Assembly: GCA_040767195.1 (NCBI GenBank) | Contig: JAXGPA010000003.1 | Span: 32,001 to 96,000 of the forward strand | Origin: Syntrophales bacterium | GTDB taxonomy: Bacteria > Desulfobacterota > Syntrophia > Syntrophales > UBA6807 | Reading direction: 5' to 3' | Length of the DNA stretch: 64,000 nucleotides | In this document: positions 33,001-42,000 of the stretch, piece after piece | Numbering within the stretch: position 1 is the first letter of the stretch | How the letters are laid out: each line of letters starts with the position of its first letter | Position numbers: made by a program

Positions 33001-36000
33001 GCATCTTTGGTAAAAAAGCTCAGGGATAAGACGAACGCCGGAATGATGGACTGCAAGGAGGCCCTGGAGGCCTCCGGCGGTGATTTTGACAAGGCCGTCG
33101 AGTATCTTCGCAAGAAGGGACTCTCCGCGGCGACGAAACGCTCTTCCAAGGCGGCCAAGGACGGTGTCATCGCCTCTTACATCCACATGCAGGGACGGAT
33201 CGGTGTCCTCGTCGAGGTGAACTGCGAAACCGATTTCGTCGCCCGCACGGAGGCCTTCCAGACCATGGCCAAGGACATCGCCATGCACATCGCCGCCTCC
33301 AACCCCTCGTACCTGAACGCCGAGTCCGTTCCCCCGTCCGTCCTGGAGGGGGAAAAGGAGATATACCGCAGCCAAGCCAAGGCGGAAGGGAAGCCGGAGA
33401 AGATATACGACCGGATCATCGACGGAAAGCTGAAGAAGTTTTACGAGGAAGTGTGCCTCATGGACCAGAAGTTCATCAAGGACACGAACATCACCGTGAA
33501 CACCCTGGTCCAGAACATGATCGCCAATACCGGCGAGAACATCATGGTCCGCCGGTTTGCCCGTTTTCAGCTCGGAGAAGAACTGAAGTAAATTTTACGG
33601 AAGGGGAGAAGGGAGGACCGTCTTCCCTTTCCGCGGATTTCCAAGGCCATGGATGAACCGGTCTACCGCAGAATACTCCTCAAGGTAAGCGGGGAAGCCC
33701 TCCTGGGAAAGGCTCCCTCGGGAATAGACGGGGACATGGCCCGGTCGATCGGCAGGGAGATCGGCGAAATCAGGGGGCTCGGTGTCCAGGTGGCCCTGGT
33801 GGTGGGCGGCGGGAATTTCCTCCGGGGCGAGGCTCTGAGTCACCGGGGGATCGGCCGCGTGACCGGGGACATGATGGGAATGCTGGCCACGGTCATGAAC
33901 GGTCTTGCCCTCCGGGATCTTTTTCGGGGAGAAGGTCTGTCCGTCCGGGTTCAGTCGGCTGTCGCCATGCCCCAGGTGGTCGAGGCCTTCAACAGTGAAG
34001 CGGCCCGAAGATACCTGGAAGACGGCGAGGTTGTCATTTTTGCCGGCGGAACGGGGAACCCTTTCTTCTCAACGGACACGGCGGCCGCTCTCCGGGCGCT
34101 CGAAACCCGGGCCGACGTTTTTCTCAAGGCCACCAAGGTGGACGGCGTTTTCGACAAGGATCCCGTTAAACATGCCGATGCCCGGCGGTTTGAGAGAATT
34201 TCCTACGACGAGGTGCTGGAAAAAAATCTTCGGGTTATGGACCAGACGGCCGTCGCCCTGTGCCGGGACAATGCCCTGCCCGTCGTCGTTTTCAACATGG
34301 AAAGGGCCGGGAACATCCGCCGGGTGGTCTGTGGTGAACCGACGGGAACGCTCATAGGAGGGAAACCATGAAGGATGAACTGATCGCCGAACTGAAAGAA
34401 ACGATGAAAAGACAGATCCAGGCCCTGGAAAAGTCCTTCAGCAAGGTGAGGACGGGCCGGGCTTCCCTTTCCCTTCTTGACGGGATCAAGGTCGAGTACT
34501 ACGGGACGCCCACCCCCCTGAACCAGGTCGCGTCTCTTTCCGTCCCCGAAAGCCAGCTTATCGTCATCGCCCCCTGGGACGTGACGGTCATCGGGGCCAT
34601 CGAGAAGGCCATTCAGAAGTCCGAGCTGGGCCTCACGCCCTCCAACGACGGGAAGGTCATCCGGATCACCATTCCGCCGCTCACCGGGGAAAGACGAAAG
34701 GAACTCGTCAAGGTGGTGAAGAAAATGGCCGAGGAATGCCGGGTCAAGGTCCGGAACGCCCGCCGGGACGTGAACAATGATCTGAAAGAACTGAAAAAGG
34801 AAGGCGATCTTTCGGAGGATGAACTTTTCCGCACCCAGGACGACGTCCAGAAAATCACCGACGAATTCATCAAGAAGACGGACCAGGTCCTGGCGGCCAA
34901 GGAAGAGGAGATCATGGAGATCTGAAAGAAAAACAAGGATTGAGGAACGAACGGAAGGGGACGATCAGGTCCCCTTTTTTTTGTGCGCTCAGCATGGGCG
35001 CACTCTTGCGGGTGGAAGTCCTTCCTTGACGTGATCACAGCGAACGAAGAGATGCACATCAGCATAAAATTGACCGAAAGATGCGCTGGCGAACCACGTC
35101 CATTCGTGATGTATCGGCCATAACGAGGTACCCATCCCGATCACAGCTTGATGACGGGAGAAGAGGATCGGTAATGACGTCTGAGGGTGTCCCGAAAAGC
35201 TCTTGACGGAATTCTGGATATGCTCTATTCAGCATAGATAAAAGAAAATACCCCGTGCCGGGAGTTGTGCCGTCGAAAGCCGGTGATTTCCCGTATCCAT
35301 GGAAGGGAGGAATCTATGCGTAAGAGTATATTATTTATAGGGATTCTCGTTTCTCTCCTGCTCCTGTTTGCTGTAGGCCAGGCCCTTGGAGAGGTCAGGT
35401 GCGCGGAGACGTACGGAAGCGGCTCTCACCATTTTTCCCTGGCCACGGGAAGTCCCGGCGAACTGGGCCTCCTCAAGGTCCTCGGCGAGACTTTCTGCGG
35501 TGAAAACGACGCCACCCTCTGCTGGGTGAAGGCCGGTTCCGGCGCTTCCCTGAATCTTTTGAAAGACAAAAACGTGGACATGATCATGGTTCACGCCCCG
35601 GCGGCGGAAAAGAAAGCCGTGGCGGAAGGGTGGGCAACGAAACGCCTTCTCATCGGCTCCAACGAGTTTTACATCGTGGGACCTTCAAGCGATCCCGCCG
35701 GCATCGCCTCGGCCACCTCCGCGGCGGACGCTTACCGCCGGATCGCCGGGAGCAAGGCGAAATTCTTTTCCCGGGGGGACAATTCGGGAACCCACAAGAA
35801 GGAAATGGCCGTGTGGAAGCAGGCCGGCGTGAATCCCTCCGGGGACTGGTACATCGTCACCAAGGATTTCATGACGGCCACCCTGAAGCGGGCTAACGAC
35901 GAAAAAGGCTATTTCATGACCGACAGCAGCACCTGGATCGCCGAAAAAAAGAATGTCCCCGACCTGAAAATCCTTTTCCGGGGGGACAAGTTCCTGGTCA

Positions 36001-39000: not shown

Positions 39001-42000
39001 GCTCCTCGTTCATCCCGACGTCCCCTACACGTCTCACAACAGCGCGGCCTGCATCGTCGTCGATCTGCCCAACGGGGCAATGGTGAGGGAAATTTCGCGG
39101 CGGATCGTCGCCCACGTGGAACGGCATGCCGACGAGGGAAGCGACCCCGGCGTCGCCGTGGTGCCGGAAGATGACCCCGGACTCCAGGAGATGATCGCCT
39201 TCGGTCTGGATTGCACCCGCAGGGTGGTCACCCGGAAGGATGCCCAGGAGACGGCGGGAAGAGCCTTTCTCCGGGGACTCGGCGGCACGAACGACGGAAT
39301 CATCGGAGCCCTGGCGGCGGTCGGCCTCACGGCCTCGGGCTGGTCGGGACGGTTCATCGAATTCGGCCGTCTTCGTGACTTTCCCGATTCCGTCTCCGTC
39401 GAAGACCTGGCCAGGGCCCATATTCACGTCGTTTCCATGGATCGGGACGCCCGGGTTCCGGGAGAGACCGAGTGGATCCGGACCAACGGGTGGCTGCGGC
39501 CCCGTCTTTTCGGCAGCCGGGCCGTTCTTCCCGTTTCTCCCGGGGAGGACGGTGTGTGGATCGCCTCGGGCGGAAAAAGAAGCCGGCCCCATTCCCCATA
39601 GGGCCCCGCTCAGTCCTTTTTTTCTTTTTCTCGCTCCATCCGCTCGTAACTTTTTACGAATCCCTGGAGCGCCCGGGCTTTCCGGCCCAGGTAATCCATC
39701 CACAGGGAAAGCATCTCCTCGCCCTCGGGATTGATGGCGTAAACCCGCCGGGCGGGACCCTGTCCCGCCGTCTCCCATTCCGACCGGACGAGCCCCTCCT
39801 CCTCCATTTGGCGCAGGTGGCGGTAGATCATGCCCGGGGGGGCGCTCCCCTCGACGAAACCGAAGCCCTGAATGTTCCGGATGATCTCGTACCCGTAGGA
39901 CGGTCCGGAAAGAAGACTGAGGAGAATGGACGGCTGGATATAGCGATCCTGTCTTCCGCCTTCGAATGAGCTTTTTTTTCGGGCCATAAGACCTCCTTGA
40001 CATATATCCTTAAAGAATCTATATTCATAAAAAAGACATTCGGGAGGATTGTGTCATGGAACCCATGATTTTTGTCCGTGAAAGACGAAAGGTGGAAAAA
40101 GGGGAGAAGAAGCCCCGGTTTCGGATCTGCGGCGTCAGCGGCGTGAATCTCAAGGTGTACGCAAGCCACATGCGGAAGATGGAACTGGACGAGATGGCCG
40201 GACATTTAGGCGCCAGGGTCATCGTTCTCCATTCCGGAAAGGAAGACAAAAAAGAAAAGTGATCCGTCCCGGGCGGGGATTTTCTCACTCCCGGTATATG
40301 ATGGTGCCCACGTGCTTTCCCTCGAGGGCGTCCAGGATGTGGCCGGGGTGACGGAGGGCGTCGATGATCTGAAGTTCCCGGATGATCTTCGCCCGCTGCA
40401 GGAGGATGAGGACCTCCCGTTCGATGATGAGATCGTCCAGGTCCATCCGGAGCAGGTCGTTCACCGAGACCCGGTCCCAGTATTTGAGCCCGCTTCGATC
40501 CCTGGACGGGACCTTCTTCGGATCCTTCTCATAAAGGCCCCGCTCGTCCTTCAGATAGATGAGGGAACGGGCGCCGATGTTCTCCGCCAGGAGAAAGGCC
40601 CCGCAGTCCGTCCGGTGGGGCGGGATGGACCCGTGGAGGGGCGGGTGCTCGAAGTAACCGTAGGGTGGCACACCGTAGGTGATGGGCAGAAAACCGAGCC
40701 GGCAGAACATGGTGAGCTGTTCCAGGTTGTCGCCGTGACCGATTTTCACCCCGCCGTGCTTGGCGAGAAGGACGGAAATCATTTCCGCGTTCTGCCAGGA
40801 AACCTTGTCGGCCAGTTTTGAAAGAACGCCCGAGGGCATTCCCAGTTCCACCCCGATGTTCATAACGTGACGGCTTCTCGTCCCGCCTCCCGTCATGAGA
40901 ATCATCTTATGTTTTTCCTTCGCTTGGACGAGGATGTCGAGAATAGGGAAGATGGCTTCCCCGCCCCGGTCGATGATGCTCTGACCCCCTATCTTCAGGA
41001 CGTTGATGTCGGGGTGCATCCGGAAGTACTCCCGGACCTCCGTTTTTTTCAGAAAATCCTTGCTTACGAGGGACTCCCCCATGAAGGGCGAGTCGATGTG
41101 AAGACGGCCCTTCCGGCCTCTTTCCTTTTTCAGCTTCGACATGCCAGGGTCCTTTCCGAGAGCGTTTCAGGCATGATCATAGAAACCGGCGGGGTCCCTG
41201 TCAAGGTCTTTCCCCATCGGCGACGGGAAAAGAATTTACAGGAAATAAACGGGGTGGTATGTAGGGCCGTGAAATTTCCGTTTACACAGGGAGGATTGCC
41301 TTGCTGAGTCACCAAGTGGACTATGAGATCCTGGGTCACGACATGCAGATCGTGGAAGTCGAACGCGATCCCGGCGATCGGAAAATAGAATCCCATGCCT
41401 GAAAGCATCGCCGCCCTTCCGGCCATCGTCCGGGTTCTTCTCGTCTTCATCGTCGTTCTTTACGCCATGAGAAAGAAGCTTTCCCTGGGGAGCGCCTTTC
41501 TTCTCGGGTCCCTCCTTCTCGGCCTCCTTTTCGGACTGGGTCTGGCGCCCATGGCCCGGTCGATGGTCTATTCCATATTGTATCCGAAAACCCTTTCCCT
41601 CGCCGTCATCGTTTCCCTCATCCTGGTTCTCAGCAGCAGCATGGAACGGATGGGGGCCATGAAGCGCCTTCTTGACCGGTTCCAGGGACTTTCCTCGAAC
41701 CCGAGACTCAATCTCGTTGTTTTTCCGGCTCTCATCGGGCTCCTGCCCATGCCCGGCGGGGCCGTTTTCTCCGCTCCCATGGTGAAACAGCTCGGGGAAA
41801 AAAGCGGCCTGGCGGCGGATCAGCTGAGCTACGTCAACTACTGGTTTCGCCACATCTGGGAATACTGGTGGCCCCTCTATCCGGGGATCCTTCTCGCCAC
41901 AACCCTGGCGGATCTGAACATCTGGGCCTTCGTCGGCCTCATGGGGCCGCTGACCCTGGTGGCCGTCGGCGTCGGCTATCTCCCCGTCAGGAACCTGGCG

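Follow-up and report, generated by a model that had tools for sequence, protein, structure and literature searches.

What is a kinase domain of the type found in TiaS, the tRNA-Ile2 agmatidine synthetase, doing at the end of a bacterial tungstate-uptake operon? The gene concerned, tckd, lies in a 64,000-nucleotide stretch of a Syntrophales bacterium contig, the window. The genome-wide survey's note had assigned its product to a bacterial stand-alone TCKD family that works in Mo/W metabolism and not in tRNA modification, and had placed that work at a molybdenum storage (MoSto)-like protein encoded nearby. The first part of this proposal finds much stronger support than before in riboswitches, ModE-type regulators, moa operons and co-occurrence with AOR-family enzymes, and the tie of tckd to Mo/W metabolism is strong. 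Is the store then its place of action? As shown below, the wider family points elsewhere: the tckd product probably helps in scavenging bound tungsten or molybdenum, perhaps as the ready-made cofactor.

The tckd reading frame is real (38873-39601, plus strand, 242 aa) and lies, as had been described, 33 bp past tupC, the last of the four transporter genes in front of it. These plus-strand genes encode a divergent TupA-like periplasmic binding protein (35316-36179; NF041772 136.7 bits, cut-off 400; PF12849), the tungstate-binding protein TupA (36273-37109; NF041772 377.8 bits, cut-off 400), the permease TupB (37119-37808; NF041773 282 bits, cut-off 320) and the ATPase TupC with a C-terminal TOBE domain (37808-38839; best NCBIfam match NF041774, below cut-off; PF00005, PF03459). 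Convergent with tckd is a PadR regulator gene (39610-39987, minus strand; PF03551). It is followed by a σ70-like promoter (39997-40025, plus strand, 11/12), the gene for a basic 68-aa protein with no family above cut-off (40056-40262, plus strand) and the single MoSto-like gene, whose product has the amino-acid-kinase fold (40285-41142, minus strand), with its own σ70-like promoter (41176-41204, minus strand, 11/12). Contigs from RNA libraries (one study, four runs) extend across the locus, join tupB, tupC and tckd, and have a start at 35269 in every run, although contigs of this kind do not prove transcripts. In two of the four runs, a contig start at 40053-40055 gives a weak indication of a start ahead of the 68-aa gene. 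The earlier operon picture stands for tckd within the tup unit but does not extend to the MoSto-like gene, which lies on the other strand: tckd is the last gene of the tup unit and shares no operon with the store gene. PadR, linked to tckd in 1/20 own-phylum loci and 0/80 wider loci, is not a regular component of the system. An Rfam scan of positions 28000-52000 gave no match, including to the Mo/W riboswitch. Farther along, an AOR-family enzyme of the tungsten oxidoreductase type (46457-48280, plus strand; PF01314, PF02730) directly follows an Fe-S subunit with Fer4 domains (45756-46460); it is likely a client outside the module.

The assignment of the protein comes from its fold and motifs. 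Its Pfam TiaS_TCKD match is below threshold (17.2 bits, cut-off 27) and it has at least 2828 database homologues, both as noted before. The AlphaFold2 model from a 98-row alignment has a pLDDT of 95.7, Foldseek ranks 1-9 are again all TiaS, and VIA comparison with TiaS structure 3amt gives Z 21.8 and rmsd 2.0 Å over 150 residues. The TCKD domain spans residues 1-157 and contains D8-D9-T10-D11 and T19, the latter falling on TiaS Thr18 in a profile alignment. A small, beta-rich second domain (about 160-235) has conserved positions in or near it (G159-R160, R168, W207-x-R209-P210), and the C-terminal 83 residues match no Pfam or PDB sequence. The invariance previously claimed from 25 members was reduced by 98 diverse ones: D8, D9 and T10 hold throughout, D11, T19, G18, G20 and G6 are kept in 97, 97 (one Ser), 93, 86 and 79, and K21 is variable. 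Only D8, D9, T10, N56, G145 and G159 are invariant. A search for longer, fused forms scored none, which is weak evidence against them.

Could the protein simply be TiaS? The two share the fold over about 150 residues (3amt, 3u02), the DDTD motif, the Thr18-equivalent threonine and the R..PY.T..N and GIIGALAAVG segments. In contrast to TiaS, the 242-aa protein has no match to the remaining TiaS and has its own small C-terminal domain; the family is mostly bacterial, its host here bears TilS and its gene context is Mo/W. Identity with TiaS was rejected: the match to NF040849 reaches 37 bits against a cut-off of 600, over profile positions 1-157 of 422, and TilS, above cut-off in a profile search, is already in the genome. 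A role on tRNA, other RNA or a nucleotide, for which the fold and catalytic motif speak, is very improbable given this partial match, the host TilS, the patchy range of tckd (24/301 own-phylum and 40/251 Bacteroidales genomes) and its recurring Mo/W-type neighbours and regulators. Nor is the domain known solely from TiaS, as had been thought: the C-terminal part of methanogenesis marker protein 11 matches residues 2-153 (TIGR03280, profile 134-283). That methanogen family has about 130 extra N-terminal residues, and identity with it was also rejected, as the match is not full length and scores 32 bits against a cut-off of 255.8.

Among solved structures, MosB is by far the closest to the MoSto-like protein (E 5e-60; MosA E 3e-44; next non-MoSto match 1.5e-8), in agreement with the survey's note. 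Azotobacter MoSto consists of two paralogous subunits, while the window has one gene and the 68-aa companion, and any storage role here is putative. MoSto is described as having no known homologues (PMC6448029). The gene is present once in its own genome, and occurs in 19/24 own-phylum TCKD genomes versus 9/277 others. Its linkage to tckd holds within the phylum (12/20 loci) and is lost more widely (5/80 loci). It was found in 0/40 TCKD Bacteroidales and in 4/30 further TCKD genomes (26/30 without). The genome-level tie is thus lineage-limited, and real inside the phylum. With the store lacking in 66/70 wider TCKD genomes, a family function at the store is unsupported; a predicted complex of the two proteins scored 0.00, which is neutral for or against contact. 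The 68-aa gene, reported near tckd in 30 of 51 loci, in fact tracks the MosB-like gene, adjoining it in 17/18 loci and accompanying it even in the tckd-less genomes L173 and L174. It constantly accompanies the single-gene MoSto-like protein.

What, then, accompanies tckd generally? Neighbours within 7 kb were compared for 80 loci from several phyla, plus 20 from the own phylum. The commonest partner is an unannotated ECF S-component (66/80), with a TonB receptor (47/80) or a FecBCD-type ABC transporter (8 loci). This link had been missed because close relatives alone were examined. ModE/PBP-type regulators occur in 37/80 loci and sulfite-oxidase-like lipoprotein domains near 18/80; the latter gave E 0.74 against the pterin binder PruR, which is not significant, and no match by profile search. 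A small four-Cys protein follows tckd in nine loci. An organic-type importer of any sort is found in 72/80 loci, a Mo/W marker of any sort in 55/80 and neither in 1/80. EcfT lies near tckd in 4/80 wider and 4/20 own-phylum loci, and tckd is also found next to complete ECF or ABC transporters, as well as in genomes lacking the S-component.

Partner groups U4, U10, U14 and U23 are one family, with nothing above cut-off in Pfam and a predicted six-helix S-component fold (AlphaFold2 pLDDT 90.7). High VIA Z values are common for helical membrane proteins, yet the top 14 rows are all ECF S-components (Z 14.3-8.2), led by the vitamin binders YkoE (14.3), ThiT (12.6) and RibU (11.1), with metal-ion S-components lower (8.4 and 6.9). 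YkoE is also the top Foldseek match (probability 1.00, but E 0.07). The linked TonB receptors form two tight clades of 18 and 27 rows (support 99 and 100). Importer contexts occur within the window's own clade as well (L043, L045, L031).

Regulation is of the Mo/W type. Five loci have a riboswitch of Rfam family RF01055 ahead of tckd or of the operon containing it. In L128, L045 and L124 it shares the strand of tckd and lies 67, 167 and 424 nt before the gene, respectively; in L087 and L129 it stands at the head of FecBCD-tckd operons. Scans of 24 further loci were negative for tckd. The L128 element is missing the P3 stem, a form that PMC2408646 ties to tungsten. The same paper states that ligand sensing requires MoeA, so that the ligand is the cofactor and not free molybdate. 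All six short ORFs tested among the HTH genes upstream of tckd match the ModE-type TIGR00637, below cut-off. No palindromic motif common to a group emerged from a de novo search of the regions ahead of tckd; a CGTTAT..ATAACG palindrome, which resembles the ModE box, is present in 2/174 loci. As riboswitch and ModE also govern plain oxyanion transporters, the regulators show which pathway is concerned, but not which cargo.

Among 251 Bacteroidales genomes (40 with tckd, 211 without; kin are not independent), TCKD carriers differ from the others in the S-component (38/40 versus 0/211), MoaC (39/40 versus 76/211) and an AOR-family enzyme (39/40 versus 63/211). None of the 17 genomes with MoaC but no AOR-family enzyme has tckd. 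Six regions picked for tckd near moaC share the order tckd-S-lipoprotein-receptor...moeA-moaA-moaC. A ModA/WtpA-type protein is present in 26/40 carriers; the other 14 have neither this nor TupA and nonetheless possess the AOR-family enzyme, so the cargo may carry metal.

We tentatively read the protein, at somewhat short of an even chance, as an ATP-using trapping or processing enzyme in the uptake of organically bound W/Mo; the pterin cofactor is the likeliest candidate. The protein's fold, the conservation of its motifs, the fold of its partner, the linkage and co-occurrence of the genes and the regulators are observed; the ATP chemistry, modelled on TiaS, the cargo and the phosphate acceptor are inferred. 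TiaS uses ATP, and its DDTD motif and Thr18 have roles in this chemistry. The cargo would be the pyranopterin cofactor (Wco/Moco) or a dephosphorylated form shed by other cells. It would pass the outer membrane through the dedicated TonB receptor and the inner membrane through the S-component, a full ECF system or a FecBCD-type transporter. Cytoplasmic TCKD may then split ATP at the DDTD/Mg site and move phosphate to the cargo, perhaps via Thr19, which would trap it and, beside MoeA/Mog, feed it back into the cofactor pool. The bolder form of this idea, that TCKD, S-component and TonB receptor make up the first pathway in bacteria to take up and salvage the Mo/W pterin cofactor, with a TiaS-type kinase re-phosphorylating or trapping it, is possible but doubtful. 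In the window, which lacks these importer genes, TCKD may recycle internal cofactor or pair with another importer, and together with tupABC and the MoSto-like gene would serve W homeostasis.

Several observations count against cofactor salvage. Carriers are no cofactor auxotrophs (MoaC in 48/50, MoaE in 46/71), and replacement of cofactor synthesis in auxotrophs and a general substitution for MPT synthase were rejected on these counts; MoaE was not found in 19/20 Bacteroidota carriers, nor in 5/5 further ones. The window's own genome (98.8% complete) gave no match to the S-component or to EcfT, neither of its two TonB receptors belongs to the linked clades, and only 6/24 own-phylum TCKD genomes have the S-component. 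The 26 Bacteroidales with a ModA/WtpA-type protein also weigh against it, and free Moco is unstable (PMC2408646).

The main rival widens the survey's idea: inorganic metal (tungstate, molybdate, thio- or polyoxo forms) is scavenged at trace level by receptor and S-component, and TCKD would spend ATP to activate it before it passes to MoeA/Mog or, in certain lineages, to the MoSto-like store. It is in keeping with ModE-type control, the store's own-phylum enrichment, tckd closing tupABC in the window and in other loci, the 14 Bacteroidales without known oxyanion binders, and conserved R41, R160, R168 and R209, which by sequence could bind an oxyanion. In tckd-less genomes, S-like genes adjoin wtpABC and mosAB; a distant homologue directly upstream of classic mosA-mosB in G002, G044 and G070 favours metal over pterin as cargo. 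However, the store is so often lacking, the S-component is nearest to vitamin binders, and MoSto loads metal by its own ATP hydrolysis (PMC6448029). TupA/WtpA often share the locus, which would make a second oxyanion importer redundant. FecBCD-type importers carry chelates or cofactors, and their presence also speaks against bare metal, a cargo we consider rather unlikely. A W/Mo-metallophore such as a catecholate, phosphorylated by TCKD with release of the metal, is less probable again. Chelates are usually taken up by a TonB receptor together with FecBCD or ECF, the four-Cys protein could be a release reductase, and catechol siderophores join Mo/W uptake in Azotobacter (PMC6448029); but a chelator-synthesis cluster is absent from the recurring neighbours, many hosts are from anaerobic lineages, and the operons contain sulfite-oxidase-like domains and moa genes. 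Finally, TCKD might be a protein kinase or an energising or regulatory subunit for the adjacent transporter, which drives or gates S-components that stand alone. Most S-components indeed lack a nearby EcfT, the Thr18 equivalent is kept, and a title cited in PMC6313347 terms TiaS a dual protein and RNA kinase. The occurrence of tckd beside complete transporters and in S-component-less genomes makes this quite improbable.

Known systems offer two further comparisons. Vitamins are salvaged by BtuB-BtuM or BtuFCD (B12) and by receptor-Pnu-kinase sets (thiamine, nicotinamide riboside). The common layout is a receptor, an inner-membrane binder, a cytoplasmic processing or trapping enzyme and a cofactor riboswitch, and the tckd partner shares the S-component fold. 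The tckd module differs in its S-component family, TiaS-type kinase and Mo/W regulation. The oxyanion transporters TupABC, WtpABC and ModABC have loci and regulators in common with tckd, but no receptor, S-component or kinase.

Whichever cargo holds, tckd belongs to a widespread module for Mo/W acquisition that lacks annotation and comprises three uncharacterised families, and TiaS-type kinase chemistry gains a role outside tRNA. No description of the family or module was found in the literature covered, which included few subscription papers and not the original TiaS papers. How pterins cross bacterial membranes is called unknown in a 2026 review (PMC13259868), and Moco uptake is described for C. 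elegans (PMC7849362). If cofactor salvage is true, members of anaerobic communities would share Wco/Moco in the way they share B12, its cross-feeding in digesters, sediments and guts would become directly testable, and tungsten enzyme production in other hosts could be aided. The proposed pathway would range across Bacteroidota, Pseudomonadota, Chloroflexota, Bacillota, Thermodesulfobacteriota and other groups, and cultured carriers of tckd include Oxalicibacterium, Herminiimonas, Bacillus sp. DNRA2 and Syntrophobacter fumaroxidans.

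The gene under study, an open reading frame of 242 aa (tckd, 38873-39601, plus strand) for a stand-alone TiaS-type kinase-domain (TCKD) protein, lies 33 bp behind tupC, in the order TupA-like, TupA-like, tupB, tupC, tckd, as the genome-wide survey's note had described. That note had also placed PadR, 68-aa and MosB-like genes behind it. The adjacency holds, but the genes do not share one operon with tckd: PadR and the MosB-like gene (40285-41142) are on the minus strand, and the latter and the 68-aa gene (40056-40262, plus strand) each have an 11/12 sigma70-like promoter of their own (promoter scan; 4 found versus 1.9 expected in shuffles). 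Therefore tckd is the last gene of the tup unit and merely adjacent to the store. The first TupA-like copy (35316-36179) is divergent, at 137 versus 378 bits, and may have a different ligand. Besides the tup genes, the genome encodes a WtpABC-type tungstate transporter (contig C1:309700-312657).

The AF2 model of the TCKD protein, made with a 98-row alignment, has a pLDDT of 95.7. TiaS takes Foldseek ranks 1-9, in agreement with the earlier claim. In the VIA comparison two TiaS entries come first, at Z 21.8 and 14.5, and the next entry scores 7.3. In the profile alignment T19, a family Thr in 97 of 98 rows, falls on TiaS Thr18, and the DDTD motif is retained. However, the TCKD protein matches only positions 1-157 of the 422 in the TiaS model, and the presence of TilS in the same genome was confirmed. 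The window protein probably works as a TCKD does, yet it is not TiaS. Methanogenesis marker 11 is also weakly matched, and one homologue is a fused form (P0196, 428 aa), with TCKD at residues 211-421 behind an unannotated N-terminal half.

Homologues number 2828 at 90% clustering and 838 at 50%, and include haloarchaeal and actinobacterial plasmid proteins and one from Thermococcus. The gene is present in 24 of 301 genomes of the window's own phylum, Desulfobacterota, and in 40/251 Bacteroidales. On a Natribaculum plasmid (L001:6773-10684) an unannotated homologue and an 'iron' ABC transporter lie in divergent orientation, and sulP is close by.

What accompanies tckd in other loci? A script grouped the neighbouring ORFs up to 7 kb away into clusters, and a single member of each cluster was annotated to stand for the rest. 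A central query other than the window's gave at least 596 stretches, of which the 80 best made up the wider set (L032 and L114 are one locus). The own-phylum set was 20 of the 23 other positives, leaving out one frameshifted (G191), one at a contig end (G152) and one weak fragment (G148). Among the 80 loci, 72 have an organic-type importer, 55 a Mo/W marker and 1 neither. An unannotated 190-aa membrane protein is found in 66, a TonB receptor in 47, a ModE/PBP-type cluster that includes a few MoeA-like ORFs in 37, TupA in 20, sulfite-oxidase-like lipoproteins in 18, WtpA in 8, FDH in 6, MosB-like genes in 5, FecBCD-type genes and EcfT in 4 each, and MOT1 and TOBE in 3 each. The 20 own-phylum loci have MosB-like genes (12), TupA (8), the membrane protein (5), and a receptor, FecBCD and EcfT (4 each). 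The clade to which the window protein belongs has both importer and store contexts, and this mixture speaks for a single biochemical function. That the family is linked to Mo/W metabolism as such is, in our judgement, close to certain.

The tckd-linked membrane proteins form one family, for which no Pfam family was found (best E 5e-4, to PF09819). The top 14 structural matches of its model are S-components, the membrane binders of ECF importers, with vitamin binders leading. The linked TonB receptors form two tight clades, and both receptors of the window's genome fall outside them. Directly 3' of tckd in nine loci (L101:10800-11054 and 8 others), mostly in FecBCD/ECF contexts, is a small four-Cys protein (C-x18-CYNCRYRRW-x5-C) with no Pfam or NCBIfam family. 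In Bacteroidota two candidate surface capture proteins flank the receptor: one is lipoprotein-like, 300 aa long and unannotated (27 loci; L125:11253-12173), the other is T9SS-sorted (13 loci; L098:13152-14003). In Chloroflexota loci (L102:16792-18129; L110:10787-12298) a sulfite-oxidase-like domain is fused to TupA, and such domains are repeated in lipoproteins.

For co-occurrence we relied on counts, because kinship of the genomes inflates Fisher values. The S-component is present in 38/251 Bacteroidales, every one tckd-bearing, and in 6/24 own-phylum TCKD genomes; none was found in the window's genome. MoaC is present in 39/40 tckd Bacteroidales versus 76/211 others, AOR in 39/40 versus 63/211, and tckd in 0/17 MoaC-positive, AOR-negative Bacteroidales. 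Among the 40, which are draft genomes and to which this search was confined, 26 have ModA/WtpA-type proteins; the remaining 14 have no such match and none to TupA, yet all 14 have AOR. In six Bacteroidales regions, chosen for tckd near moaC, the order is tckd, S-component, lipoprotein and receptor, followed by moeA-moaA-moaC; five of the six also have MOSC/mog genes. MoaE was not found in 19 of 20 TCKD-bearing Bacteroidota (G301-G320), though MoaC was in 19; the MOSC-Mog genes seen in moa operons are a possible alternative MPT synthase. The MoSto-like gene is present in 19/24 own-phylum TCKD genomes versus 9/277 others, in 0/40 TCKD Bacteroidales and in 4/30 other carriers.

The Mo/W cofactor riboswitch RF01055 is found in 22/64 carrier genomes. 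Of 34 loci scanned directly, the first 10 mostly chosen on hints from that 64-genome scan, five have it on the tckd strand; the 24 beyond the first 10 have no tckd-linked match. It lies 67 nt (L128), 167 nt (L045) and 424 nt (L124) upstream of tckd, and heads FecBCD-tckd operons in L087 and L129. In one genome (G347) the sole match is the one before tckd. The P3 stem is absent in L128 and present in L087. According to Regulski et al. (PMC2408646), P3-less forms are tied to tungsten and repression requires MoeA; therefore the signal is the cofactor. Upstream of tckd, short genes give sub-threshold matches to the ModE repressor domain; in longer ones an HTH is paired with the PBP domain of PRK14498. 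The window's genome has one Mo/W riboswitch (C1:468759-468875), located where a molybdopterin-oxidoreductase gene begins.

Vitamin salvage has comparable layouts, such as BtuB-BtuM and receptor-Pnu-kinase sets. Since receptor, S-component or FecBCD, kinase and cofactor riboswitch together make up this layout, we tentatively rank first an organically bound cargo, W/Mo-pyranopterin or its dephospho form. It would be imported by the receptor together with either an S-component of the vitamin type or a FecBCD-type ABC transporter, under the cofactor riboswitch, and phosphorylated by TCKD on entry. Against this, the carriers make the cofactor themselves, the same regulators also control plain oxyanion transport, and the importer is absent from the window's genome. 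An HD-domain gene between receptor and moeA (L134:10728-11540; L135:10419-11222) could encode a protein that trims nucleotide or phosphate off imported cofactor.

The survey's own proposal, ATP activation of tungstate itself, ranks second, at perhaps one chance in a few; the need for a separate loader is weakened by ATP hydrolysis by MoSto itself, as described in PMC6448029. A metal-bearing cargo is favoured by a distant S-like gene directly before classic mosA-mosB in three tckd-less genomes (G002, G044, G070). There the genes that directly precede mosA-mosB (L169:4682-10698 in G002) are wtpABC, one for a lipoprotein of the sulfite-oxidase-like kind and one for a 374-aa protein whose C-terminal part is S-component-like; tckd was not found. 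A metallophore as cargo is doubtful, a kinase acting on the transporter improbable, and RNA modification, for all the likeness to TiaS, very improbable.

No account of the TCKD family or the module was found in a literature search that mostly excluded subscription papers. The family is real and uncharacterised, within an undescribed Mo/W acquisition module; fold and transporter types are known and their combination is new. The module's cargo is experimentally testable.

The 68-aa gene accompanies the MoSto-like gene in two tckd-less genomes. A single-gene MoSto-like protein with this constant basic companion (window 40056-41142; L173, L174) is found in non-Azotobacter anaerobes with tckd present or absent, and the pair is possibly a homo-oligomeric W store with its release or cap factor.
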